Of a stretch of 47,673 nucleotides of DNA, positions 33,779 through 47,673 are shown piece by piece. The position numbers and the translations under genes were made by a program. The first letter of the stretch is position 1, and each line of letters begins with the position of its first letter. Origin of the DNA: an uncultured Nitrososphaerales archaeon (GTDB lineage: Archaea; Thermoproteota; Nitrososphaeria; Nitrososphaerales; Nitrososphaeraceae); the NCBI GenBank assembly GCA_963709405.1, contig CAVPXM010000023.1:1-47673 (forward strand). Direction: 5' to 3'. The notes under the pieces are model-generated. The model made no database searches. It saw only the letters and a list, made by a program, of their open reading frames with translations, and was not told the origin of the DNA.

Positions 33779-34177
33779 CTTTCAACTAGTACCTCTCTAT
33801 TCTGTTTATCGTGTTACTGCTGTTACTACACTTGGCCAATAATGTTCTCATTAGTATGCACATGCAAGGTTTTATTGTGATATCTTTATGAATAATACTC
33901 AATACCGCACAGCACCGATGTCGAATTGAATCCGATATTGCTAATAATGAATCCAAGTAATTCCCAAGAATAGATACTCTTATATTTTGATACAATATTA
34001 CTCACTGATATGAAGCTAAATATAAAGCTCATGTTGAAATAATATTACATTCAGATAATAAATCAGGTGCAAGATGGATAAATGTTAATTATTTTATATG
34101 AAGATGACTCATTCAGATGCCATCTGTTAAGTTAATTAATTCCTATGGAAGTAACAAACTACATTTTATAAATAAAT

Positions 34178-35340
34178 GAGGCTTGGACATAATTGAATTC
34201 TATATTTTTCATATATTATTTAGTAACATATTAACTACATAACATGTGTTTGATTGATTTTGGTCGTTGACTACGTCTGGTTTTATAATTGTAATAGACA
34301 AGGATCTGATATAGTAGTACTGACAGAAGTGCTATTCCAGCAGCCTTCTGGTAGCCTCTTACTGGTAATGGGTCTATTCTAAAAACAGATTTAATATGTT
34401 CTATTAGTGGTTCTATCGATTTACTTCTCCAAGAGTAAATAGCCTGTCCGGCTATCAGCTCTTTTCAGCTCAAGTCTGTCAGTAGGGGTATGTTCATATC
34501 TTTGTACTGGACATACCAGTTCAAATCCTCTTTTAGTACTCAAGTCATATAGTTTATGGTCGTCATACCCAGAATCGCCTATCATGAAACATGTTTCTGG
34601 AGACAGAGATGATGTTGATGATATCATCGGATTGTACATTTGATTATCTTGTACATTAGCAGTTGTAAAATCTGCTGCTAATGGGACTATGATGGAACCA
34701 GTACTTGATATCATATGTAGTTTGTAACCAAATATCCATCCTTTAGCATGGCTGAATCCCCATCTTGCGTCAGTATCTATGCCAGAACGTGGTACTGTAC
34801 CTTTGTTCATAGATGATTTGTGCCAAACATGTCCTTTGGCTTTCAGTAAAGTACTATCTATTGCAACAATGTATGGATCTATCATCTTCTCGCATACAAA
34901 CATGCAGGTCATGATAGTAATCCTTTTTTTGATGTCTATGGATATGGTCTTAAGTCGTCTGTCAAATGTTCGCCTGTCTGGTATTTGGGTAAGACCACAT
35001 CTTTTCATTATCTTCTTATTGTAAGGATAATCCAATTCTAGGAATTCATGTAATGCATTGTTAGAATCCAGTCTAAACCATAGCCTAACTATGAAACATC
35101 TCAGAATTACAGTAGGAGAATAAACATATGGTCTGCCCCTTCTTCCCTTTTGCGATTCTGACCACGGTATCGAACCTATCAAGTACAGAATACTAAAAAG
35201 AATAGATTCACATTTACTACCATATGCTATCCTTTGGGAATGTTTGATTATGTTTCATCACAAATTCAGACACTCAAAGGATAGCTTTATCCTAATTCAT
35301 TATAGACATAAAATATGGATCTGGAATATGCCCAAGCCTC
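34178..35340 (-). mobile_element. Full-length IS element (DDE_Tnp_1 transposase, IS982/IS5-like) with TIRs and 8-bp TSD; transposase 34231-35258 is frameshifted
   Basis: TIR GAGGCTTGG(A/G)CATA at 34178-34191 and 35327-35340. AAATAAAT at 34170-34177 and 35341-35348. Motifs IDST, GWIFGYKLH, GDSGYD and RSKSIEP. Confidence 0.92.
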
Positions 35341-35536
35341 AAATAAATAGTGATGACGCTAATCCGAAGTATTTGCTTTCGTATTGCTACCATGCGTCCT
35401 CAAGTGACAATAGAACGTTTCTACAGGTTTTTGATGTTGATATCACACGATTGTACTTACAAATGTATGATACATCCAACATTTTGGATATTAAACATTT
35501 AGGATTCAGACTATTACAGACACGGTACTTATCAAT

Positions 35537-35566
35537 TGTTAAATATTATATCCAACAGCCTTATAT
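35537..35566 (+). promoter_or_regulatory. Promoter (BRE/TATA) with TGTT-N13-AACA palindrome, conserved in all three cassette copies
   Basis: CCAACAGCYTTATA occurs in each copy, with the TATA element starting 30 nt before the start codon. Confidence 0.7.
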
Positions 35567-35589
35567 CTTTCAATCATCTTAGTCCATAG

Positions 35590-35733
35590 ATGTTAGAAAA
35601 TATAGCATACATAGGTCTTGGATTTGCAGCAGCATTCTTTGCACTTGAAGCAGCGTGGCACTTTACGGCGTGCAAGATACATGACAAATCAATAAAGCCT
35701 TGTTTCTACAAGCAAGTTGGCTTATTGAAATAG
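35590..35733 (+). CDS. 47-aa membrane-anchored microprotein, copy A
   Basis: MLENIAYIGLGFAAAFFALEAAWHFTACKIHDKSIKPCFYKQVGLLK; differences from the paralogues are rich in synonymous changes. Confidence 0.85.
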   Translation: MLENIAYIGLGFAAAFFALEAAWHFTACKIHDKSIKPCFYKQVGLLK

Positions 35734-35751
35734 AAGGAGGTCCTGATAATA

Positions 35752-35898
35752 ATGGCAAGTATTGAAAGTACTAGCAGAATTACAAGAAGGACAAGATTAC
35801 TGAAAATGAAAACAAGCCGATCATCATCTAAAGCTATTGAAGTGGAAAGAATCATCATGCATGATGGATTTAGTTATTTTTCGAGAGATAATAACTAA
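35752..35898 (+). CDS. 48-aa basic microprotein, copy A
   Basis: MASIESTSRITRRTRLLKMKTSRSSSKAIEVERIIMHDGFSYFSRDNN, preceded by SD AGGAGGT. Confidence 0.7.
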   Translation: MASIESTSRITRRTRLLKMKTSRSSSKAIEVERIIMHDGFSYFSRDNN

Positions 35899-36855
35899 TA
35901 ATTACTGGGTAGAACATTTGACGGAAGTTATATAGTTCAGATGCTATTGAATTAGGCTTCTCATAGCCATAAAGGAAAGGTTTTGTCAATTTGGGATAAA
36001 GTGTTCTTGTCATATTTGCTGTCGATATTTACAACCTAGCTGATAACTAAATTGAATATAATGATGAGCGGAAACTCCCCGGATGGATAACCGTTAATTG
36101 TTAGCGATTAACCCATTCGAGCAGGTCAATAATATGATGGCAGAAGTGCTCGCAAATATGTGTATCAGTCAGATAAAGAACGTTAGTGAATCATCTTCGC
36201 ACTTTTTGAATCCACTCAAGTGAAAATGATGTATTCATAATCAATGCACGGTTTGACAATACTGTATACATGGTGTTACTATTGCATATGAGCAAAGCAT
36301 TTGGGGGAAGAAGGAAGCTGAATCTTTATAGGGCATGAGATCATATCGGGTAACTCTAAATGCATTTTAAATCGAATCTGAAATTGTTGTCTATAACAAA
36401 CACCTTTTTCTTGAATCGGATTTATAGTATACAAACAGTAGTTAAGCGGATCTGCAGCAAAGACTATACTAGCTTTACTCACTGCAATGTCAATCCCTTT
36501 CTTCGTATTGCAGGCTTGAGTTTCTCATATCCTCGCAACCATTAAGTATATTTTCAAGTAGTTACGACATAGTAATTGAACAATTTTGCGAGAGCTATGG
36601 AAAGACGTATACAGATGGATTTACTAAAGCATGGGAGCGGAGCTCATTTAGGATAATGTGGACATCCGATTGTACAAGCTGCGTGGTTCTGTTACTTGGT
36701 CAAGGAGTGAGAGTTGATAAGTCGATTAAGGCTTTTTTCTAATAGGCTTTAAAAGATAAAGAAAGCATATCACAAACCTGTTCTGCCCACACGATTCATT
36801 TAAACGGCTGCCATGTTCCACTGCCAAGTAATTGTAACAGGCTTTTGCGTACTAA

Positions 36856-37230
36856 CTAATTCTTTCTTAGTGCAAAGAATATGAAAGTGTAATCAAGGCG
36901 TGTATCATCCCAATGAATAACTTTTTCTGCGTGTGAAAAATCTATTGGTTCAGTAAGAAGGAAACCGTTCCGTTCTGCAATGCTAATTACCTCTTCCTCT
37001 ATTTCTCTCCTGTTGAAAATATTATCAGGCGAATTCTTAGGATTTACGTCCGTATTAACTAGATTGACTATCTTATCAGGCCAGTAGTCGGTCGATGTCA
37101 AAAGTACTCCACCTTTTTTATTATTCTATTCATCTCTTTGAAATAGTTCTGAATATTAATACCATGTTCGATGACTGATAATGACGTAACGAAATCAAAT
37201 GTAAACGAGAATGTTGCTCCAGGAAGAGTC
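36856..37230 (-). pseudogene. C-terminal part of a class I SAM methyltransferase
   Basis: FDFVTSLSVIEHG...FKEMNRIIKK(GGVLL)TSTDYW with a frameshift near 37113; motif I absent. Confidence 0.75.
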
Positions 37231-37593
37231 CTGAATCGAACGATCTTTGCTGATTCTGCACTTCCTACACTACCTGATGTCGAGGTGTGAATCTGACTAT
37301 CGTTACTAGTCCGTGTTATCTCTTGTCCAACCACGACAACTCAGGAATTTGGCTGGCTCCTTTCAGAGCGACGTCCTTTACAATCGCTACAGGAATGCTT
37401 CGCTCGTCTTGCGAATCAGTCGTAGTCGTAATAACCTTGTAAGCCTCTAACGTCCGAGGAAGTATCGCCTTATCTGATGGCTGCTGGAACTTCGAGAGAT
37501 TTTTAATACCAGCTGTGGTTTGCTTCTGCGGCGATGCTTATGACATCGAAAAGTCTTAGTTCAGTATATAACTTAGGCTCGTACTAATTGGGC

Positions 37594-37941
37594 CTATAAA
37601 ATAGCAGATTCTCCAGCAGTCTTTGACGCCAAATCATACGCTTCCAGAACATCGCGGACAAAGACCTTGCCGCGCGTGGGTGGTAATTTAAGGAGATCGT
37701 CAATAACAGGTTTCACCTTTGAGTCGGGTACAATAGTCGACATACGTACTCTGGACACATATTCTGGACCCATTTTTTTCTCATATGTGTAGGCCTGAAT
37801 CGTGTGTGGAACGGCCTCATGGGGTATCTTTCCTCTTCCTTTGACCTCTGAAAGACTTATGCCTCCAACCCCATGCATATGGAGAACATCAGTTGCCGCC
37901 GAGACGTTCTCCCATGCGATATAAATGTCGATCTGTTTCAT
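37594..37941 (-). CDS. P-II family nitrogen regulatory protein (divergent)
   Basis: MKQIDIYI, GVGGISLSEVKGRGK, IVPDSKVKPVID and GKVFVRDVLEAYDLASKTAGESAI. Confidence 0.88.
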   Translation of the reverse strand: MKQIDIYIAWENVSAATDVLHMHGVGGISLSEVKGRGKIPHEAVPHTIQAYTYEKKMGPEYVSRVRMSTIVPDSKVKPVIDDLLKLPPTRGKVFVRDVLEAYDLASKTAGESAIL

Positions 37942-38479
37942 ACTTATAGTTACTCACCATTGTAATAATATTTTATGCTTCGCTTCTTAAAGCTTCCCTA
38001 TCAATCATGTACCCTGTTAACTTAGAGATAAAGCTATTGCCGCGAACATTCTCTAATATTCTATGAGTCTATTTGAACGTGAGAGAACATGAGCAGAAAC
38101 AATATTGTATACATTATACTTATATTTTCTAGGTCTAAGTAAGTTTCAGAAATACATTTAAAGCGATCCAACTCTTTGGAAAAGAGTGAGGACGAAGGAG
38201 TCATGTTGTTGCTGTACTGAAATGGGTTCAGAAATTCAATCCCGGGTGTGTTTACCGTTATAAAAGAGTAGTATCTGCTTTTCCAATTCATATGCCGAAC
38301 TATGTGACTGTATATGTGTCAGAGAAAATATCTTAATTGGTAAAGCTGTGGTCTGCGAAATGAAAATAGTTCATGGCAAGTTCTTATGTACAGCTTTCGT
38401 CGTTAAAGACATCATACGACATGAGCTTGCAATTAACAGTACCAGAAAGAATTTTTATGACGAAATGATTTCATTTACA

Positions 38480-41236
38480 TCAACTGTGCTCCTTCTTTCT
38501 GGTCAATAGTTTTATTATTTCTGAATATACAAACCCAGTTGTGGCTAACACCAACAGAAGAATCCAATCTCCTACTTGCAACGGTACAAAATCAAATAAC
38601 TCTTGCATCGGTGGATAGTTCATGATAAAAAGAGCAGCAGCTGATTCGCCGATCAACGAATAGAGTAGCGTTTTGTTTCCAAATAATCCAAGTTCATTAA
38701 TATTGTGAGTAAATGATCTACATGATAATGCAAAGAATAATTCGAAGAAGACTATTACGCCAAAAACCATAGTTCTACCCTTTGCAACTGCAAGACTCGA
38801 ATTCCATCCATTAACCTGTAAAACGTATGCAAAGAGCAGCAATGACGTCACTGCGAGAATAATTGGAATTGTTATCAGCAACCTCTTGATGCCAAAGAAT
38901 ACGCTTTCCCTTGGATGTCTCGGCTTTCTTCTCATAATGTCAGGCTCATGAGGTTCTAGACCGAGTGCTATGGCCGGAAAACCATCAGTTGCAAGATTGA
39001 TGAAAAGGATATGTTTTGCCAGTAATGGAAGAGGCCATCCCATAATGACAGAGAATGCAAGGATAATGATTTCACCTAAATTTACAGATAATAAATAAAC
39101 AAGGTACTTTTTGACATTGTCAAAAATTCCTCTTCCCTCCTCGATTGCTGAAACAATAGTTGCAAAATTATCATCTGCGAGAATTATCGATGCCGATTCT
39201 TTTGCTACTTGAGAACCTGTTATTCCCATCGCGATACCAATATCAGCTGCTTTTAACGCGGGGGCGTCGTTTACTCCATCACCTGTCATAGCAACGATAT
39301 GCCCTTTATTCTTCAGCGCTTGTACGATCTTGAGCTTGTGTTCCGGTGAAACTCTTGCATATATCTTGATGTAGTCTGCCCTTTTACTTAAGGATGTGAC
39401 ATCTGTAGTTTCTAGCTCTTGATCAGATACAATGATGGCATTGTCATCTTTTGTCGTTAACTTATCATCGATTATTCCGATCTCTCTTGCGACAGCTATA
39501 GCTGTAAGTTTATGGTCTCCGGTTATCATAACGACATCTATCCCTGCGCATTTGCATTGCGCAATTGAATCTATGACTTCCTTCCTTGGTGGGTCCATCA
39601 TCCCCACAAGGCCTAGGAACAAAAGATTCTTTTCTACATCTTCTTGTGATAAATGATTCTCTTTCAGCTCTTTGTACGCTAGTGCTAACACTCGTAATCC
39701 TCTTGTAGCCATATCATCATTTGCAGCCAGAATTCTATTTCTCATATCGTCAGACAAGGACAAAGATTTGTTATCGACAACAATCCCGGAGCAACGACTC
39801 AGGACAACTTCACAAGCGCCTTTGATATAAGCTTCATGCTTTCTACTATTACTGCTACTATTACTATTATTATTGCATGAACTTCTATGGATTGTTGTCA
39901 TCATCTTTCTTTCGGGACTGAATGGTATTTCTTGTACCCTCGGATATTCGGAATTTGTTTTGTCCTTTGTTATGCCACCAATCTTGTAGGCAAAAATTAA
40001 CAATGCAATCTCAGTCGGGTCTCCTGTTAGGTCAGCCTTATCTTCTTTGAACACTATGTTAGCATCATTACATAAAACCGCTGTCTTGGCAAGTAGCATT
40101 AGATCGTTGTTATCAATATTTGAATCAACAACCCCACCTTCTAAACCATATCCTGCACCAGTTACCTGAGCAGATTTGTCATACACATAGAGATTCCTTA
40201 CTGTCATCTCCCCCTTCGTTAAGGTTCCCGTTTTGTCACTACAAATTATAGTCGTCGAACCAAGAACTTCCACAGCCTGAAGCCGCCTCACTACTGCGTT
40301 TCGTTTAGCCATTTTATATGTTCCAACTGTCAGAGATGCTGTTATAACTGCAGGTAACGCTTCTGGAACAGCTGCTACTGCTAAGCTTATTCCCCAAACA
40401 AGCATGTCTAATAGTTGGAGACCACGAATAAATGCAAAGATACTAACAATTCCAACTACGAGTAACATTATTACACTCAGCAGTTTCGTGGTATGTCTAA
40501 TCTTTAGTTCAAAAGGAGTCTTTCGTACATCAATTGTTTGTACTTCAGTTGCAACCTTTCCTAGTTCTGTATCCATGGCAGTTGCAAAAACTACTGCTTT
40601 TCCTCGACCATAGGTTATAGTGGTAGTAGTGTAAATGATGTTTTTTCTGCCAACAATCGGCGTATCTTTAGATATCACTGCTGCAGTTTTTCCTACTGGA
40701 AGTGATTCTCCAGTTAAAGGTGCCTCGTTTACCTCCAAGTTGTGACTCTCAATTAAGTATGCGTCCCCAGGAACTTTGTCCCCTACAGAAAGCAGAATTA
40801 TGTCACCGGGGACAAGTCTTGTCACATCAATTATGCTTTCCTCATTATTTCGAATAACCCGGCATGTTCCGGCTGTCATCTTCTTTAACGCTTCAACCGT
40901 CTTTTCTGACCTGTATTCCTGGATAAAGGCTACAGTGGCCGCAAGTATTACTATTGCGATGATAATAGCTGAATCAATCAGTTCACCCACAATCGCAGAG
41001 ATCGCAGTCGCAAATAGGAGTATTATTATAAGAGGATCGGTGAACTGTTTTGCGAATGTGGCTGCTCTCGAGATCCCTCTTTCTGCTTCGATTTCATTAA
41101 ATCCGTAGACTGTAAGTCTCTCGTTAGCTTCTCTCTGAGTCAGTCCTCTGATACTAGTCCGTAAATCTTGCATAACTTGATCACGATTTATAGAATGCCA
41201 GTCGGGTTTTGTTGATTTTGTCGATTCCTTTACCAT
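38480..41236 (-). CDS. Cation-transporting P-type ATPase, P2A (Ca2+-ATPase-like)
   Basis: LTGES, AAVPEALP, DKTGTLT, KGA, MITGD, TGDGVNDAPAL and INLATDG; intact 918 aa. Confidence 0.96.
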   Translation of the reverse strand: MVKESTKSTKPDWHSINRDQVMQDLRTSIRGLTQREANERLTVYGFNEIEAERGISRAATFAKQFTDPLIIILLFATAISAIVGELIDSAIIIAIVILAATVAFIQEYRSEKTVEALKKMTAGTCRVIRNNEESIIDVTRLVPGDIILLSVGDKVPGDAYLIESHNLEVNEAPLTGESLPVGKTAAVISKDTPIVGRKNIIYTTTTITYGRGKAVVFATAMDTELGKVATEVQTIDVRKTPFELKIRHTTKLLSVIMLLVVGIVSIFAFIRGLQLLDMLVWGISLAVAAVPEALPAVITASLTVGTYKMAKRNAVVRRLQAVEVLGSTTIICSDKTGTLTKGEMTVRNLYVYDKSAQVTGAGYGLEGGVVDSNIDNNDLMLLAKTAVLCNDANIVFKEDKADLTGDPTEIALLIFAYKIGGITKDKTNSEYPRVQEIPFSPERKMMTTIHRSSCNNNSNSSSNSRKHEAYIKGACEVVLSRCSGIVVDNKSLSLSDDMRNRILAANDDMATRGLRVLALAYKELKENHLSQEDVEKNLLFLGLVGMMDPPRKEVIDSIAQCKCAGIDVVMITGDHKLTAIAVAREIGIIDDKLTTKDDNAIIVSDQELETTDVTSLSKRADYIKIYARVSPEHKLKIVQALKNKGHIVAMTGDGVNDAPALKAADIGIAMGITGSQVAKESASIILADDNFATIVSAIEEGRGIFDNVKKYLVYLLSVNLGEIIILAFSVIMGWPLPLLAKHILFINLATDGFPAIALGLEPHEPDIMRRKPRHPRESVFFGIKRLLITIPIILAVTSLLLFAYVLQVNGWNSSLAVAKGRTMVFGVIVFFELFFALSCRSFTHNINELGLFGNKTLLYSLIGESAAALFIMNYPPMQELFDFVPLQVGDWILLLVLATTGFVYSEIIKLLTRKKEHS

Positions 41237-41388
41237 CTATTGAAATACTTCCAAACTAATGTGTATCGGTGCAATAAGTTTATGCTTTCTAATATCAGGA
41301 TTCATCAATTAATTCTTTCTTATAGAATTTCAATCGTCCTGATATTGTCATTTTGAGGTATTTGCGGTAACTACCGTTCAAGATAATT

Positions 41389-41725
41389 TTACAACCCTCC
41401 GGTTATTGTTCCATAAACTAACCCTGCAATGACACTTCCAATCCATGCTATAGCCACGTATGTTAGAACAACTTTCCATCGGACAATTCTTGATACCGCT
41501 ACGGCGTAAACAACATCATATGGTTGTCCCATAAGCCATGATAAGAGTGGACCTTTGGTCATTCCCAGAGCGACTAATCCTTTACTGAGAACAATTTCTA
41601 CCACTGTAGGTGTATATAGAGGTCCGCAAATCACAGATGCCATTAAGACCCCTATGCCCCCAGCGACATAATCGGACACTATGTCCTGTGGAAAGTAAGC
41701 TTGGACGTAACTAACTGTAACAATC
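41389..41725 (-). pseudogene. C-terminal fragment of a permease (DUF318/ArsP-like)
   Basis: ASVICGPLYTPT...LVALGMTKGPLLSWLMGQP; N-terminal part missing. Confidence 0.7.
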
Positions 41726-42312
41726 CCTCACCACGCCAAGAAGTTTGGGGACTTCCATGGCGTTCTAATGTAACTCAGGGATTCAAGGTCTCGCGCACTG
41801 CATAGAGGAACGTCCATTATATTTTGGTGGATGATCTCCGCAGTTGCTAGATGATATTCTGCATGTTAGCGATGCAAAATATTTCTTGTCCTTGAAAAAG
41901 ATATGTATCTTTCAAATTCATTTATCTTGTCGATACGAATGTGTGTTTTTAATGTCTGTCCTACTTTAAACTCTTAATTTCAAATCGGATTTACAAAATT
42001 ATTGAATCATATCTAATATATTTTAACGGTCACATTGCGATCGCTATTATTTGCTATTATACCACACGAATTTTTTACTGACCAATTTAGCCGATGTGCT
42101 TTCGTATTGTTATCATACGTACTCAATTGACAATAGAATGTTTCTACAGGTTTTTGATGTTCACATCACACGATTGTACTTACAAATGTATGATACATCC
42201 AATATTTTGGATATTAAATATTTAGGATACAGATTATTAGAAATACAGTACTTTACAATTGTTAAATATTATATCCAACAGCCTTATATCTTTCAATGAT
42301 CTTAGACCATAG

Positions 42313-42465
42313 GTGTTAGAAAATATAGCATATTTTGGCCTCGGCTTTGCAACTGTCTTCCTTGCACTTGAAGCAGCATGGCACTTTACAGTCTGCAAAA
42401 TACATGACAAATCAATAAAGCCCTGTATGTACAAGCAGGTAAAGTTAGCTTTAGTGAGAGCATAG
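42313..42465 (+). CDS. 50-aa membrane-anchored microprotein, copy B (within repeat 42097-42441)
   Basis: GTG start; MLENIAYFGLGFATVFLALEAAWHFTVCKIHDKSIKPCMYKQVKLALVRA. Confidence 0.8.
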   Translation: MLENIAYFGLGFATVFLALEAAWHFTVCKIHDKSIKPCMYKQVKLALVRA

Positions 42466-42487
42466 CAGATAAGGAAATCCGAAATGG

Positions 42488-43732
42488 ATGTGGGATAGGC
42501 CACTGCCTGCTAAGCCTAGAAACAAAGAAATCCATAGAGATACAGATTCCGAATTCCTTGAAGTTATTTATGATGCTCAAAAAGCAACGGATATTTATAT
42601 CGACCTTGCACGATCAATAGATAACGAAGCTCTATTACTTTTTGCAAATAGTAAGGCTATGGTGAGGGCAGATAGACTAGGAGTTGTAGATTATTTAGTT
42701 AAAACATCCAAGAAAGGAGCATCAATAAAGATTATCTGCCCAATAACTGAGGAGAATTCCGAGATCATAAAACAAATTTCTGAGAAGGCACCCAGTATCA
42801 GAATTCTTAATGGGGGGAAATCTCAGTCTGGTCTGTTCATAGTTAATAATGCCAAGTTTATTAGATTCGAGATAAAAGAAATGCTAGCTGAAGATTTTAC
42901 TGATGCAGTTGGATTTGTAGTATATTCAAACACAAAAGTCAGCGTATACTCATCTAGGTCATTTTTTGAACTACTTTGGAACGAGCGTCTGCAATATGAA
43001 AAACTAAAAGAAGCAGATGAAATGAAAAGTGAATTTATCAATATAGTTGCTCATGAATTACGAACACCGATACAGCCCATCCTGGGACTGACTGAAATTA
43101 TACATTCTGAGACAACAGATCCTAAACAACTTGATTATTTGGAAGTTGTTATAAGGAATGCAAGAAGATTACAGCGACTAACGGACAACATACTGGATGT
43201 TAGCAAGATTGAAAGCGGGTCATTAGATCTTAAGCAAGAACATTTCAATTTAAAGGATGTAATAACAAATGCTTTAAATGATACGATAATACTAAGAAAT
43301 AATTCATCCAGTAACACTAATGAGAAAACAAGTGTAAGATTATACTATCAGCCGCAAGATGGTTTTGTAGAAGGAGACAAAGGAAGGATAAGTCAAGTCG
43401 TTTACAATCTAGTAAATAATGCCTTTAAATTCAGTAAGGAAGGAAGTATTATTACCGTTAATTCAAAATTAGAAGACAACAAGATTATTGTCAGTGTAAA
43501 AGATACTGGTCAAGGCATAGACCCTAGACTACTCCCCAAACTATTTTCAAAGTTTGAAGCAAAATCCTTTTCAGGAACTGGATTAGAATTGTATATCTCC
43601 AAGAATATCATAGAAGCACATGGTGGCAGGATATGGGCTGAAAATAATAATAATATTAACGGAGAAAGAGGAGCTACGTTTCACTTTAGTTTACCACTAC
43701 TCAACGTCCAACAAAACCAACTTGTTTGTTAA
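42488..43732 (+). CDS. Cytoplasmic sensor histidine kinase, probably N-terminally truncated
   Basis: H box AHELRTP, N box NLVNNAFKF, G1 DTGQGI and altered G2 GTGLEL. Confidence 0.9.
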   Translation: MWDRPLPAKPRNKEIHRDTDSEFLEVIYDAQKATDIYIDLARSIDNEALLLFANSKAMVRADRLGVVDYLVKTSKKGASIKIICPITEENSEIIKQISEKAPSIRILNGGKSQSGLFIVNNAKFIRFEIKEMLAEDFTDAVGFVVYSNTKVSVYSSRSFFELLWNERLQYEKLKEADEMKSEFINIVAHELRTPIQPILGLTEIIHSETTDPKQLDYLEVVIRNARRLQRLTDNILDVSKIESGSLDLKQEHFNLKDVITNALNDTIILRNNSSSNTNEKTSVRLYYQPQDGFVEGDKGRISQVVYNLVNNAFKFSKEGSIITVNSKLEDNKIIVSVKDTGQGIDPRLLPKLFSKFEAKSFSGTGLELYISKNIIEAHGGRIWAENNNNINGERGATFHFSLPLLNVQQNQLVC

Positions 43733-44321
43733 CGGATGACAGAAACAAAGAAAGACGATGAAAAGGAAAAAATTTGTTTTATTATTAATATGTAAATAAA
43801 CTATAATGCCTTTTACATTAGCATATGTCAGTTTCTATATACTGAAGACAAGCGGATGCGGTGGGCTTCAAATAGTAGAGGAATGGTAAATCAAGTAAGC
43901 ATATGCAGTTTGACTGAAGCGATCCTTAACTATGACTACTCCACTTCTCTATTGTAGTCATCCATTCCCGTGACTTCAACTCTGTGCAAATCAGCTTACG
44001 CTTCCAAGACACCCGATATCCTCAAAAGGAAAACGCTTCCGTACGACTTTACCATCTTTACGTAATACTCTATATCATATATCAACCAATTGTGGCGCCT
44101 CTGGCTATCCCCAAATACGTACTTGACGAATTTATCATATCGTTTTCATAGTCTAGAAGCCATTCTTGATTAAGACAATCTTGACCCATTTTACAAATAG
44201 ATGGTAATCCTAGTATTTTGTAAATTATATTTATCAAATATTAATTATAAAGAAATGTAATTGTTATTTGTTCAGTATTTTCCCCAACAGCTTTATACCT
44301 TTCAGATATATTAGAGTAAAT

Positions 44322-44465
44322 ATGTTGGAAAATATAGCATACATAGGTCTTGGATTTGCAGCAGCATTCTTTGCGTTGGAATCAGCATGGCACTTTACGG
44401 CCTGCAAGATACATGACAAATCAATGAAGCCTTGTTTCTACAAGCAAGTTGGCTTATTGAAGTAG
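44322..44465 (+). CDS. 47-aa membrane-anchored microprotein, copy C
   Basis: MLENIAYIGLGFAAAFFALESAWHFTACKIHDKSMKPCFYKQVGLLK. Confidence 0.85.
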   Translation: MLENIAYIGLGFAAAFFALESAWHFTACKIHDKSMKPCFYKQVGLLK

Positions 44466-44483
44466 AAGGAGGTTCCGACAATA

Positions 44484-44630
44484 ATGGCAAGTATTGAAAG
44501 TAGTAGGAAAATTACAAGAAGGACAAGATTACTGAAAATGAAAACAAGCCGATCATCATCTAAAGCTATTGAAGTGGAAAGAATCATCATGCATGATGGA
44601 TTTAGTTATTTTTCGAGAGATAATAACTAA
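44484..44630 (+). CDS. 48-aa basic microprotein, copy C
   Basis: MASIESSRKITRRTRLLKMKTSRSSSKAIEVERIIMHDGFSYFSRDNN, preceded by SD AGGAGGT. Confidence 0.7.
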   Translation: MASIESSRKITRRTRLLKMKTSRSSSKAIEVERIIMHDGFSYFSRDNN

Positions 44631-44899
44631 TAATTACTGGGTAGAACATTTGAACGCATGAATATTGTTCAGATGCCAATGAATTAGGCCTCTCGTAGTC
44701 ATAAAGACAAGGTTTTGCCAGTTTGGGATAAGGTGTTCTTGTCGTATTTGCTATCGATAATTACAACCTAGCTGACAACTAAATTGAATATAATGATGAG
44801 GGGAAACTCCTCGGATGGATAACCGTTAACTGTTAGCGACTAACTCACTTTATAGTTTGAGCAGCAAGACCTCGTCATTTCAAACTACTTAGGCAAGGC

Positions 44900-45240
44900 A
44901 TTGATAAGTAAGAGCTAAACTCCTCATGTCTCAGCAGCGATTAAATCAAGCAATGATACAGCTAAGGTATCCTTTAAAAGGTGACAGTATACGTTACATC
45001 TATACAAACTCGCAACACAATAATCCTCCTTGTAGAGTTGTTCCCATAGAGAATACACACATAAAGGGTTTCTACTGCTACCGTATGATAATGAAAAATA
45101 TAAAGAACTGATACTCGATGGCATAGAAACGGTACTAGGATTGTTTGGCTTTGAACTGTTTACACTAATTCTAAGAACGGCAGAAAATAGTACAAGGAAT
45201 TAAGAGAAGAACGAACAAGAGACATACAAACTGATTCATA
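44900..45240 (+). pseudogene. C-terminal fragment of a family-B DNA polymerase-like gene
   Basis: GDSIRYIYTNSQHNNP.CRV, then YDNEKYKELILDGIETVLGLFGF in another frame. Confidence 0.7.
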
Positions 45241-45369
45241 ACATGATCAAATACATACTTGATATTCTCTGATAGAGCAATAAACTGTATTGCTACTACG
45301 TATAATTGATTTATTTGCAAGAGTATCAAGAAAATATAATAATCTAGATTGCTAATTTTTCATAACACA

Positions 45370-45605
45370 GTGATCCGCAAAGTCTATAACCCGAAACCGA
45401 AGATGGAAAGTTCCCTGAAGACTGGCAACACATATTTGATCCATTGGAAACATTTACTTTTGTAGCCGCTATCACTCATAAAATTGCATTAAGAACTTCT
45501 ATAATCGACATGCTCTTTCGTAATCCAGTCATACTGGCAAGGGATTTGCAACATTCGATGTCTTATCTAAAGGAAGAGATAAAGCCGGATTTGGAATAGA
45601 TTAGT
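45370..45605 (+). pseudogene. Fragment of an LLM-class (F420/flavin) oxidoreductase
   Basis: FDPLETFTFVAAITHKIALRTSIIDMLFRNPVILARGFATFDVLSKGR. Confidence 0.8.
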
Positions 45606-45774
45606 TTGTCAAACCTCGCATCTGTTGGTTATTGTTCTCTACAATTCTGGAAGTGAATAATTAGAAAGTTATGAGGTGATTTCGTTTACTGTTTTATATC
45701 GTATATATATACCATATCCTTCATATTATAAAATGAACTTTTGTCTTATATATATGGAAGAAAATACCAAATTT

Positions 45775-46426
45775 GGATCTGTAAAGTCAATGAAAAATCT
45801 ATAGACATATGTCTCGGATATAGTTTATGATATGTCAAATAAGAAAGAGAACAGAACCTGAGGATATAGCATATTCTCTGTATCTTTCTTTATTTCCTTG
45901 GTCTTTCACTAAGAAATACATCCAAAGCTGTGTCCAGATTTGTTAAAAGGAGCCATAGTGCAATAAGAGACTGGATTCAAAAATAGAAACCCGAGATATT
46001 AGGTTCTAAAAAGTTACGTATTACCGAATTTGTAATTGATGAAAATTGACTCACTATATCTGGTTATGGATAGCCATTGAAAACGATAACCGAGAAATCC
46101 TTCAAATAAGCGTATCCAAAGAAAGGGAGAAACATGTTTGTTGCGGAACGTTTTATATCAAACCTTGTGAAAAGATATGGAGAACATCCTGTTTCAACAG
46201 ATGGACGTACATGGTATCCACCACAGGACTGTAAATTCTTAAGAATAAGACACCATCTTCATTCTGCATTTGAGAAAAGCATAATCGAGAGAGAACGATA
46301 CAATATATCAAAGATAGAACGGAAAGGGTCCATGATTAATTTCCTTGTAGAAAAAATAAATGTAATGGTTGAATCTGTTTGTTTGTCGTCAAAACAAGGA
46401 GTCGATATCTCAACTTTATAGAGTCC
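45775..46426 (+). mobile_element. Degraded IS6-family element
   Basis: GLSLRNTS, RSHSAIRDWIQK, VIDE, WLWIAIE, VSTDG.TWYP and EKSIIER. Imperfect TIRs GGATCTGTAAAGT and GGACTCTATAAAGT. Confidence 0.88.
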
Positions 46427-46546
46427 ACTTAGAATATCATTGCTTTAGAGGAGCAATAATAGCGACACCTAAAGGTATTCTTCATGTTAGTGTCTACACC
46501 TATTAAGTAGGATTCGTTATATACACTTATCGGTCATAAAGATATA

Positions 46547-46771
46547 ATGAGTGAAAGTACTTCAACCGAACTAACAAATACCGCATATGACATACTAAAG
46601 GTTTTAGGAAAAGATGCAGATTTTCTATACGATACTATTGATAAGTATATCAAAGATGCACAGAACGCGAACAGACAGGACTTGGTAGAAATGTGGCAAA
46701 TTATAAAAAAGGATAGGCTAAAACACATACATATGTTAAAGGAAGCGTTAGAAAAAGAGATCCATGGCTAA
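46547..46771 (+). CDS. Small helical protein, half-ferritin-like
   Basis: DADFLYDTIDKYIKDA...W..IKKDRLKHIHMLKEAL; TTATATA about 28 nt upstream. Confidence 0.75.
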   Translation: MSESTSTELTNTAYDILKVLGKDADFLYDTIDKYIKDAQNANRQDLVEMWQIIKKDRLKHIHMLKEALEKEIHG

Positions 46772-47673
46772 CTATATCAATTAGCAGATATTCTCTAATT
46801 AGAATAATGTATTTTTTCTCTTTGAGATTCAGCTGTATCCAGGTAAGTATAGCCTAATTTTCTGAAGTAAGCAGGTATAGGAGTGGTCCTGTCAGCTCTA
46901 AAGTCCAGGATTTACTGTGATAAGTGCGGCTATAGTGGTTCTGTAGGATTACTAACTACATTTCACTAATTGCCAAAAAATGTGGTTTAGTATTTTGCTT
47001 ACCTCAATTTTTGGTAATTCTTGCAATCGCTTCGCCTCACGTTCTATTTTAGATGACTTATCATAAAGATATTTTTTCACCTTGTATAGATTTCCATATT
47101 TATCCTGCCGCAATTTTTTTGTGCGATAGTCACCACGAAAGCAAAAACTTGTCGGTTGTAACTTTAAGTTATTTTCAATTTTGGCTTAATTACCTAAAGT
47201 AACGCTTCTCATTACACGGTCTTCTTGAGTTCAAATATGCTACTTGATGAATTTGACGGCGTATTGACTCATTTGACGTGCTATTTGACGATGACCATAT
47301 AAACCGTCGTTGATACTTAAGTAAGTAGAATACGAATATGCCTGCAGCAATTCCAGAAGCTATAAAATCACATGTTATCATACAATGGCTCCAGGGCCTT
47401 AGCCGAGATGCCATCACGCGCAGTTCGGCTAGGTCGTGAGGTAACATAATCAACGGGTGGACAAATGCTCTTGGTGAATATGAAGCAGATGCGCTGAGGG
47501 ATTTAGCAAAATTACTCAGAATCGCCGGTCTTTCTCCGGCTCAATGTGCGATGGGTTTTAGAACTACGAAAATATTAAGTGAGCAGAATATAGATGCACC
47601 TTATATCTGACATATACAAAAAATGCAAGAACCTTGGAGTCACGTCAAGTAAAATCGTCACTTATATTGAAGA

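Follow-up and report, generated by a model that had tools for sequence, protein, structure and literature searches.

A Multi-Copy Family of Small, Putative Membrane Proteins in Nitrososphaeraceae and Its Association With Two-Component Genes

The ORF1 and ORF2 Copies of the Window

Contig CAVPXM010000023.1 of an uncultured Nitrososphaerales archaeon (assembly GCA_963709405.1; 4.83 Mb in 100 contigs, 37% guanine plus cytosine, GC) carries three copies of a small open reading frame (ORF) of 47–50 amino acids (aa), here named ORF1, two of them followed by a 48-aa ORF, named ORF2. The question raised by this locus is whether these ORFs are genes at all and, if they are, what their products might do. 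The window analyzed is the entire contig (C23; 47,673 nucleotides, nt); other contigs of the same assembly are designated by C and loci of other genomes by L. The analyses described below indicated that ORF1 is almost certainly a real protein-coding small gene and ORF2 very probably another, that ORF1 constitutes an unnamed family found, among the searched genomes, only in Nitrososphaeraceae, and that its placement ahead of soluble two-component genes is strongly non-random. The copies are as follows:

35590–35733, + strand: ORF1-A, 47 aa, ATG start codon (ORF list and direct sequence reading)
42313–42465, + strand: ORF1-B, 50 aa, GTG start codon, tail ending in ...KQVKLALVRA
44322–44465, + strand: ORF1-C, 47 aa, ATG start codon, nested in a 65-aa ORF that starts with TTG at 44268
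35752–35898, + strand: ORF2-A, 48 aa (ORF list, direct reading, and alignment A3)
44484–44630, + strand: ORF2-C, 48 aa, 94% identical to ORF2-A

A first-pass annotation, made from the sequence alone, had reported these three ORF1 copies, a motif AWHFTxCKIHDKSxKPC in each of them, and a 48-aa ORF2 behind an AGGAGGT site in copies A and C. The ORF1 coordinates and their start and stop codons were confirmed, the motif was found in all three copies, and the arrangement of ORF2 was confirmed by sequence reading. The ORF2 terminus, given there as IMHDGFSYF, had to be corrected, the true end being ...IMHDGFSYFSRDNN and not ...SYF. ORF1-C is 96% identical to ORF1-A, and the ORF1 hidden Markov model (HMM) scored copies A and B at 104 and 103 bits, respectively. 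By blastn against the whole assembly, 35371–35717 aligned with 42094–42440 (A/B repeat; 87.9% identity over 347 nt) and 35525–36115 with 44257–44847 (A/C repeat; 89.7% over 591 nt), both repeats being well above chance. From the limits of these repeats, the A/B similarity takes in the upstream region and ORF1, and the A/C similarity extends from the promoter through ORF1 and ORF2 into about 220 nt of 3' sequence. The similarity among the copies is mosaic, and so are the flanks.

Coding Status and Selection

Selection on ORF1 was analyzed by the Nei-Gojobori method using 36 distinct sequences from the source genome and from 28 loci of other genomes. One of these loci, L043, belongs to a genome flagged as unpublished (G035); it also entered the tallies and was one of the four seeds of the zinc-ribbon HMM described below, it lies outside alignments A2 and A3, and no claim depends on it alone. 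Codon positions 1, 2, and 3 differed by 0.26, 0.20, and 0.47, insertions kept the frame, and the median ratio of nonsynonymous to synonymous substitution rates (dN/dS) was 0.19 (352 usable pairs). Reading the same DNA in the five alternative frames gave dN/dS values of 1.08–1.54 in four of them and 0.31 in one antisense frame, and these frames carried 28–160 stops. Within the window, copies A and B showed 15.5 nonsynonymous and 14.5 synonymous differences (dN/dS 0.19), and the ratios for A–C and B–C were 0.11 and 0.18. The earlier observation that many A/B differences are silent was borne out by this calculation, and so was the purifying selection proposed for ORF1.

ORF2 is less constrained than ORF1. 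The ORF2-A and ORF2-C sequences differ by three nonsynonymous and no synonymous changes, so that the window alone shows no constraint on ORF2, and this part of the first reading did not stand. Constraint became visible in the comparison across genomes, where the median dN/dS was 0.39 (30 pairs) vs. 0.53–0.96 in other frames. The ORF2 frame was the sole frame free of stops in nine out of nine homologs, and its length changes were in frame.

An alternative in which these ORFs had arisen by chance, or were fragments of a known, larger gene, is contradicted by the dN/dS values, by the stop counts, and by hundreds of intact homologs of the same length, and we consider it scarcely credible. What speaks for it is that the ORF1 tail ends a truncated kinase (P0158, corresponding to L068) and an aldehyde dehydrogenase (P0159). 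The break points of these two tail fusions differ, and therefore they were read as secondary deletions or rearrangements and the idea of a piece of a larger gene was dropped. In addition, 15 out of 47 longer database matches were read, and none of the 15 was a known larger family with an internal ORF1, most of them being upstream-extended calls into the conserved promoter region or natural two-helix forms. At L068 (1475–2668), on a 106-kb contig, a HAMP-HisKA-HATPase kinase truncated in its ATPase domain is in frame with the last 27 residues of ORF1, which looks like the result of a deletion that joined the kinase to a downstream ORF1.

The reading frames had been described as intact, and this holds throughout the window. 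The region 41200–47673 recurs at about 99% identity in C95 (1837–8214) and in C69 (116581–120197, at the contig end), as determined by blastn, and in these two copies ORF1 is frameshifted near codons 13–20, within a GCAGCAGCA run. This recurrence may stem from differing strains within the bin or from a duplication of very recent date.

Gene Neighborhood of ORF1

The 900 nt downstream of ORF1 were scanned on the same strand with HMMs for five families: receiver domains (REC), histidine kinases (HK), ORF2, a 131-aa protein, and a 70-aa zinc-ribbon protein. Two samples of loci were scanned and then merged:

First sample, first family downstream, 63 full-length loci: REC or HK 18 (REC 14, HK 4), ORF2 16, 131-aa protein 7, zinc ribbon 1, none 20, short flank 1
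Second sample, any family within 900 nt, 72 full-length loci with at least 400 nt of flank: REC or HK 30, ORF2 12, 131-aa protein 3, zinc ribbon 4; none in 27 of 76 full-length loci
Merged and de-duplicated, 109 full-length loci: REC or HK 36 (2 behind ORF2), ORF2 19, 131-aa protein 8, zinc ribbon alone 3, none 45

A receiver or kinase gene was therefore present downstream of ORF1 in 33% of the merged loci (36 of 109) vs. about 1% expected, an approximately 30-fold excess; the expectation derives from the 55 receiver and 54 kinase ORF hits in the 4.83 Mb of the source genome, which make chance adjacency about 1% per locus. The gaps between ORF1 and the signaling gene are often 5–90 nt, and the layouts comprise ORF1-REC, ORF1-REC-REC, ORF1-HK, ORF1-ORF2-REC, ORF1-ORF2-HK, and REC-ORF1. 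Pfam confirmed the receiver domains in L031, L033, L036, and L041. The type of partner tracks the ORF1 clade, and signaling adjacency occurs in several clades, with 17–18 changes needed on the poorly resolved tree and at least seven when only well-supported branches are counted. There is also a read-through ORF1-receiver protein (P0138, one cluster on two contigs), the receiver part of which looks degenerate.

In the window, this association is represented by copy B:

42488–43732, + strand: histidine kinase, 414 aa, 22 nt after the ORF1-B stop codon

This kinase matches Pfam HisKA (5.8e-18) and HATPase_c (2e-25), has no transmembrane segment (maximum 19-residue hydropathy 0.88), and begins with a domain of about 170 aa for which no family match was obtained. 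The same order of ORF1 followed by a kinase gene was found in L039, L069, L074, L124–L126, L130, and L132–L134. The link to the neighboring kinase suggested by the first-pass annotation is thus supported as a family-wide pattern. The link to a neighboring P-type ATPase, also suggested, was not upheld: the gene for this P2-type cation pump is convergent and about 2.6 kb away from copy A, divergent and about 1.1 kb away from copy B with a permease fragment in between, and in no operon relation to any ORF1 copy, and it was dropped as a partner. ATPases were not among the five families of the downstream scans.

Two further neighbors were noticed. One ORF1 subfamily is directly followed, at gaps of 4–13 nt, by the 131-aa protein, which belongs to no known family and has 14 ORF hits in this genome (sites at C30 65705–66097, C43 12537–12929, L071, L076, and L077). 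In another subfamily, characterized by an L-N-L insertion (L042, L043, L047, L051, L087, and L153), ORF1 is followed first by a divergent ORF2-like gene and next by the gene for the 70-aa zinc-ribbon protein, which has four Cys and a weak match to Zn_ribbon_IS1595 (7e-5).

Distribution and Database Status

The copy A peptide gave 18 matches in the source genome, corresponding to about 12 loci, some of them broken. Searching all six-frame ORFs with phmmer, intact paralogs were located on C30, C43, C50, and C86 (the latter holding two, one of which shows no clear start codon), a divergent paralog on C61, and broken copies on C15/C17, C21, and C40. What had been called a triplicated cassette is rather part of a large, lineage-wide paralogous family. 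Paralogs 45–50% identical to copy A retain M-x-E, Y7, G11-F12, L19-E20, W23-H24-F-T-x-C28, D32, and P37-C38. A gene for an Lrp/AsnC-like regulator, a candidate family named by sequence appearance alone, lies directly 5' of ORF1 on the same strand in two different genera, at L090 (3235–3696) and on C86 of the source genome (14776–15219).

Of 61 sampled Nitrososphaeraceae genomes, 35 contained relatives of ORF1, and 12 out of 18 genera were represented. No single genome had more than 15 matches, the family having multiplied to 5–15 matches per genome in soil lineages with large genomes. A profile search at the level of the class detected ORF1 in 12 out of 30 Nitrososphaeraceae genomes and in none of the 220 genomes that represented 13 other families. 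When 185,579 species, each represented by a single genome, were scanned for the pattern, 185 ORF1 loci were confirmed. The best 80 of these 185 were all Nitrososphaeraceae-type records (titles among them being Nitrososphaeraceae archaeon, Candidatus Nitrosopolaris, and Nitrososphaera sp. AFS), joined by one record labeled as bacterial. The latter, L166, is a 248-kb contig titled Acidobacteriota; its GC content of 33.7% and an ORF1 identical to the copy on C86 make it probably a mis-binned Nitrososphaeraceae contig and not a bacterial homolog.

Protein databases held 112 clusters of ORF1 (25–83 aa) and 229 of ORF2, all of them unnamed or annotated as "hypothetical." By exact look-up, the relative at L088 is on record as the hypothetical protein NTE_00807 of Candidatus Nitrososphaera evergladensis SR1, and NVIE_015720 of Nitrososphaera viennensis EN76 is a 52-aa member of the same 90% cluster as this relative. 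No mention of the motif or of these two locus tags was found in the main texts of the papers searched. Nothing in Pfam, NCBIfam, PHROGs, or PADLOC matched ORF1 or ORF2 at a meaningful E-value; the top library matches, phrog_6866 (E 0.019) and the SetB family (E 0.065), were taken as chance. The ORF1 profile had no match among Protein Data Bank (PDB) sequences, and in the ESM Atlas the best score for ORF1 was 0.80, below the 0.9 bar, and no family was named. For ORF2, the PDB-sequence profile search returned only matches of 10–11 residues (E 0.32 and 6.9), which were judged to be chance, and its homolog P0168 reached a best ESM Atlas score of 0.88, also below the bar and naming no family. Both peptides are therefore uncharacterized, as had been supposed: no family library gives either of them a name.

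The many copies, some of them broken and lying in DNA rich in insertion sequences, could also be those of a selfish or toxin-like module, a small hydrophobic, membrane-damaging peptide held in check by ORF2 or by an antisense RNA, which would account for their multiplication; an open antisense frame does overlap part of ORF2. This antisense frame carries one or two stops in all nine ORF2 homologs, and most ORF1 genes have no ORF2. The resemblance to a type I toxin is one of size only. The polar tail is the most conserved part of the protein, PADLOC gave no match, and searches of 2.9 million viral contigs, 50,697 phage records, and 72,556 plasmid records returned no relative. Terminal inverted repeats are absent, and a relative sits in matching gene neighborhoods of two closed genomes. 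For the toxin-antitoxin-like pair suggested by the first-pass annotation, positive evidence was likewise not found, and the matching neighborhoods and the frequent occurrence of ORF1 without ORF2 speak against it. Taken together, we regard a module of this kind as improbable. A miniature mobile element was likewise dropped, on account of the lack of terminal inverted repeats at the ends of the 591-nt unit, the mosaic flanks, and the lack of relatives in those viral, phage, and plasmid records; unlike the near-identical copies of a mobile element, ORF1 copies diverge as proteins do, as judged by dN/dS.

Anatomy and Predicted Topology of ORF1

ORF1-A consists of a single hydrophobic helix followed by a basic tail with WHFTACKIHDKSIKPC. 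An AlphaFold2 (AF2) model built with 29 sequences comprises a helix at 2–27, a loop at 28–38 bounded by two Cys, and a helix at 39–46. The N-terminus is acidic (M-L-E-N), the helix conserves Y7, G11-F12, and L19-E20, and an invariant W23-H24 pair stands at its end. In the tail, which is the most conserved part of ORF1 and has the pattern W-H-x3-C-x9-C, C28 is invariant and P37-C38 at least 90% conserved, the spacing between both Cys being nine residues in most members and 7–13 in the outliers L082, L083, L090, and L091. The loop is followed by a short basic helix, and the terminus differs by subfamily. Mean charge is −1 for the N-terminal flank and +3.9 for the tail, which is positive in 36 of 37 sequences. 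According to the positive-inside rule, basic flanks of membrane helices face the cytoplasm; an acidic N-terminal flank and a positive tail therefore predict a cytoplasmic tail for ORF1. Four natural variants have two helices, the second hydrophobic helix lying after the motif and leaving the latter in a basic loop.

A paralog that has only the helix in common with ORF1 was found in closed genomes of Nitrososphaera type (L172 1205–1420, − strand; L173 1099–1308; L174 1074–1277). It has the pattern M-I-E-x-I-x-Y-x-x-x-G-F ... M-E-A-A-W and an Ala-rich tail free of Cys, and this pattern suggests constraint on the ORF1 helix itself.

The same anatomy bears on whether ORF1 might be a precursor that yields, by analogy with peptide pheromones, a peptide signal, exported or modified, to be sensed by the neighboring kinase or receiver proteins. 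An ORF of 47–60 aa directly ahead of kinase or receiver genes, a loop bounded by Cys that could be cyclized, and a multi-copy family with variable ends would all suit such a precursor. Export is disfavored by the acidic N-terminus, which has no positive n-region, by an invariant Glu three residues ahead of the sole site at which cleavage would be plausible, and by the strongly basic tail. The linked kinase has neither a membrane-embedded nor an extracellular portion. None of the five families scanned downstream serves in processing or export, no search dedicated to such genes having been made. A peptide signal would thus seem unlikely here.

Upstream Region and Transcripts

Several elements could be assigned upstream of the three copies:

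35371–35589, + strand: conserved upstream region of copy A, common to copy B and to loci of other genomes (blastn)
42094–42312, + strand: upstream region of copy B, homologous to 35371–35589 (blastn)
35561–35566, + strand: TATA-like box TTATAT of copy A, 29 nt before the ORF1-A start codon
42284–42289, + strand: TATA-like box of copy B, position inferred by ungapped alignment with copy A
44293–44298, + strand: TATA-like box TTATAC of copy C, 29 nt before the ORF1-C ATG

The DNA upstream of ORF1 is 70–88% identical across genera, region 35371–35589 being 87.6% identical over 217 nt to L034 and 70–86% to L053, L069, L025, and others. In an alignment of 21 upstream regions representing several genera, conservation of the TATA-like box is 90% or higher. 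In archaeal promoters, the spacing of the TATA box predicts the transcript start, and a distance of 29 nt from box to start codon implies a leaderless or nearly leaderless mRNA, so that ORF1 would be transcribed from its own TATA box about 29 nt ahead of its start. A perfect 13-nt palindrome, ATGTATGATACAT, at 35463–35475, about 120 nt 5' of ORF1, is retained in copy B and in L053 and partly retained in other genera, and it is a candidate binding site for a regulator. Contigs from RNA libraries (four soil libraries from four studies) cover 35526–36055; the region compared was 35200–36300, in which 35311–35495 and the part beyond 36087 are uncovered and hence uninformative. Three of these contigs bridge ORF1 and ORF2: X1 (35692–35897; 206 nt with no difference from the window), X3 (35606–35756), and X4 (35630–35921). 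They are consistent with a transcript shared by both ORFs.

The transition from ORF1 to ORF2 is marked by the following sites, both identified by direct reading and both located 2 nt after the ORF1 stop codon and 10 nt ahead of the ORF2 ATG:

35735–35741, + strand: Shine-Dalgarno-like AGGAGGT of copy A
44467–44473, + strand: Shine-Dalgarno-like AGGAGGT of copy C

A ribosome-binding site directly after the ORF1 stop would suit a role of ORF1 as a regulatory leader, either a translation-arrest or a membrane-insertion-monitoring peptide, controlling translation of the downstream gene. The diversity of downstream genes and a most conserved stretch of about 25 residues near the C-terminus, with W, D, and P, point in the same direction. 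Against such a leader, the distance from motif to stop varies from 6 to more than 40 residues, some members are not followed by a gene in the same direction (at L088 and L089 the adjacent downstream gene is convergent), and no co-directional partner was recognized at 45 of the 109 loci. Moreover, no stable or shared RNA structure was found between the ORF1 end and the next start; the fold z-scores of −1.2, −0.04, and −1.7 led us to drop an attenuator model, and a leader function appears very unlikely.

ORF2

The N-terminal half of ORF2 is basic and Ser-rich, and its C-terminal part contains the conserved motif IEVERIIMHDGFSYF; in alignment A3, the C-terminal pattern I-E-V-x-R-I-I-M-x-D-G-F-x-Y-F is maintained across genera. 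Its AF2 model is mostly disordered, with a single helix at 26–38. Among the 61 Nitrososphaeraceae genomes, 11 carried ORF2, and these belonged to 6 out of 18 genera; the proposed ORF1-ORF2 pair of peptides recurs in several genera.

Other Features of the Window

Beyond the ORFs and their upstream regions, the window contains the following:

35899–36115, + strand: 3' region of copy A, about 90% identical to copy C, no conserved ORF
44631–44847, + strand: 3' region of copy C, homologous to 35899–36115 (blastn)
34169–35350: insertion sequence of 1.18 kb, with a DDE_Tnp_1 transposase ORF at 34421–35182 (− strand)
37098–37334, − strand: Methyltransf_11 piece, matching profile positions 60–89 of 95
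41389–41679, − strand: piece of an ArsP_1 permease, matching only profile positions 212–293 of 294
45770–46430: member of a repeat family of about 650 nt

Region 35899–36115 is conserved within the genus only (L053, 77% over 99 nt) and is probably a 3' untranslated region or flanking DNA. The insertion sequence has about 16 near-full-length copies on other contigs (83–98% identity by blastn), and it ends some 20 nt away from the conserved region that precedes ORF1-A, the 5' side of which it probably cut. The ArsP_1 and Methyltransf_11 pieces show that the decay of neighboring genes described earlier is real. The repeat at 45770–46430 has several dozen matches in the genome (66–86% identity), and an ORF of 95–103 aa within it (46110–46418) had no Pfam match. 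An Rfam scan of the whole window gave no match, and no intrinsic-terminator-like sites were found.

A Proposed Role for ORF1

Based on the anatomy and neighborhood of ORF1, we lean, tentatively and at somewhat less than even confidence, toward a role as a membrane-anchored adaptor, or a thiol or metal switch, for soluble two-component proteins; this reserve concerns the mechanism and not the reality of the genes. The ORF1 helix would cross the membrane with its N-terminus outside, exposing the Lys-rich Cys/His loop to the cytoplasm. There, the loop would dock soluble signaling proteins encoded just downstream, namely receiver-only response regulators, a kinase without transmembrane segments, or ORF2, and would tether or gate them at the membrane, its His, Cys, and Cys acting as a thiol or metal switch. 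For copies A and C, this role of partner would fall to ORF2, encoded on the same transcript with its own ribosome-binding site, and for copy B to the adjoining kinase. The earlier suggestion of a membrane metal- or redox-sensing peptide is compatible, as far as the sequence goes, with the invariant His and Cys of ORF1.

The main rival explanation, which has a real though smaller chance of being right, is that ORF1 is a stand-alone small membrane protein unrelated to two-component signaling, for instance a peptide that binds metals or buffers redox state, or else a small subunit or stabilizer of a membrane complex, the neighbors having come along by co-duplication in plastic DNA rich in insertion sequences. 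The window is indeed rich in such sequences, and the expansion of ORF1 tracks large, repeat-rich genomes. The closed-genome relatives are monocistronic, in matching neighborhoods, and partner families are missing downstream of 45 of the 109 loci. Set against this explanation are the excess of receiver and kinase genes over the roughly 1% expected, the presence of the adjacency in several clades and gene orders with gaps often of 5–90 nt, and the existence of the read-through fusion P0138.

Several observations weigh against the adaptor proposal. The 45 loci just mentioned lack all five partner families, and the single full-length relatives in each of the two closed genomes, whose gene neighborhoods match, stand alone with a convergent gene downstream, so that the ancestral job may not involve a neighbor. 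Adjacency can be inherited by duplication of the whole unit, and therefore the 36 loci are not independent. The loci were sampled for holding ORF1, many of them come from related genomes, and the ORF1 tree is based on 50 columns and leaves 59 of its 100 inner branches open. As for the protein itself, the helix is borderline hydrophobic (mean Kyte-Doolittle hydropathy 1.54 for the 19 residues before W23; 1.64 for the best 19-residue stretch of copy A), and the confidence of the AF2 models is modest, with predicted local distance difference test (pLDDT) values of 68 for ORF1 and 62 for ORF2. H31 is not conserved, and C38 is replaced by Ser in one subclade (C86 of this genome, L076, and L166). 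A disulfide is not expected for a cytoplasmic Cys pair. Finally, the RNA-library contigs are unstranded and may stem from DNA carry-over, and they leave transcription and translation unproven.

It is a more doubtful proposition, and yet a possible one, that ORF1 would be the first described archaeal small membrane regulator of two-component signaling: a set of leaderless anchors of about 50 residues with a cytoplasmic His/Cys/Cys loop that senses redox state or a metal, recruiting to the membrane receiver-only regulators, membrane-less kinases, or ORF2, its paralogs having diversified by duplication, each with its own partner. If this were true, ORF1 would provide an input or output layer hitherto missing from the picture of the many orphan signaling proteins of soil ammonia oxidizers. 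Archaeal two-component systems are poorly understood, and the partners of bare receiver domains are unknown. Among the response regulators of Thaumarchaeota, about 75% consist of a receiver domain alone and are presumed to act via protein-protein contacts (PMC5847659). ORF1, as a conserved and expanded family of one lineage, provides a testable candidate partner for such proteins, and since NVIE_015720 belongs to the cultured N. viennensis EN76, the idea can be tested at the bench. Independently of mechanism, two small-protein families with hundreds of members are still recorded as "hypothetical protein" in public databases.

Comparison With Known Systems

Bacterial peptide-pheromone precursors such as ComC and AgrD adjoin two-component genes. 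Like them, ORF1 is an ORF of about 40–50 aa directly ahead of kinase and regulator genes. In contrast to them, ORF1 has no recognizable export leader, its tail is basic, and the partner kinase is soluble; no processing gene turned up near ORF1, although no search was dedicated to such genes.

The lineage-specific small domains HalOD1 and NitrOD1-5 of archaeal two-component systems (Galperin et al., 2018; PMC5847659) share with ORF1 a narrow range in Thaumarchaeota, a mostly stand-alone occurrence, and several copies per genome. They are occasionally fused to receivers, to which the single read-through case P0138 of ORF1, with its degenerate-looking receiver part, may or may not correspond. ORF1, which the passages on these domains do not describe, differs in being predicted to be membrane-anchored and in having 47 aa vs. 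70–120 aa. Moreover, no Pfam family matched ORF1, ORF2, or the 131-aa neighbor at the thresholds used.

In bacteria, sensor histidine kinases are regulated by small single-pass membrane proteins such as MgrB, SafA, and MzrA. MgrB has 47 aa and a single helix; its W20, which stands at the helix end, and its C28 and C39 are essential for inhibition of a sensor kinase (PMC8404706). ORF1 is of the same size (47–50 aa) and likewise has a single helix and a short tail with two conserved Cys. In both proteins a key Trp stands at the helix end and a conserved Asp lies between two Cys about 10 residues apart, W20, C28, D31, and C39 of MgrB (PMC8404706) facing W23, C28, D32, and C38 of ORF1. There is no sequence relationship between them: Pfam and NCBIfam gave no family at E-values up to 1 for ORF1 A, B, and C, the presence of an MgrB model in these libraries being unchecked. 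The tail of MgrB is periplasmic, whereas that of ORF1 is predicted from its charge to be cytoplasmic, and MgrB acts on a membrane kinase, whereas ORF1 is archaeal, multi-copy, and encoded beside soluble kinases and receiver-only proteins. Both are genetically linked to two-component signaling, and by this analogy ORF1, while not a homolog, would resemble MgrB in its logic.

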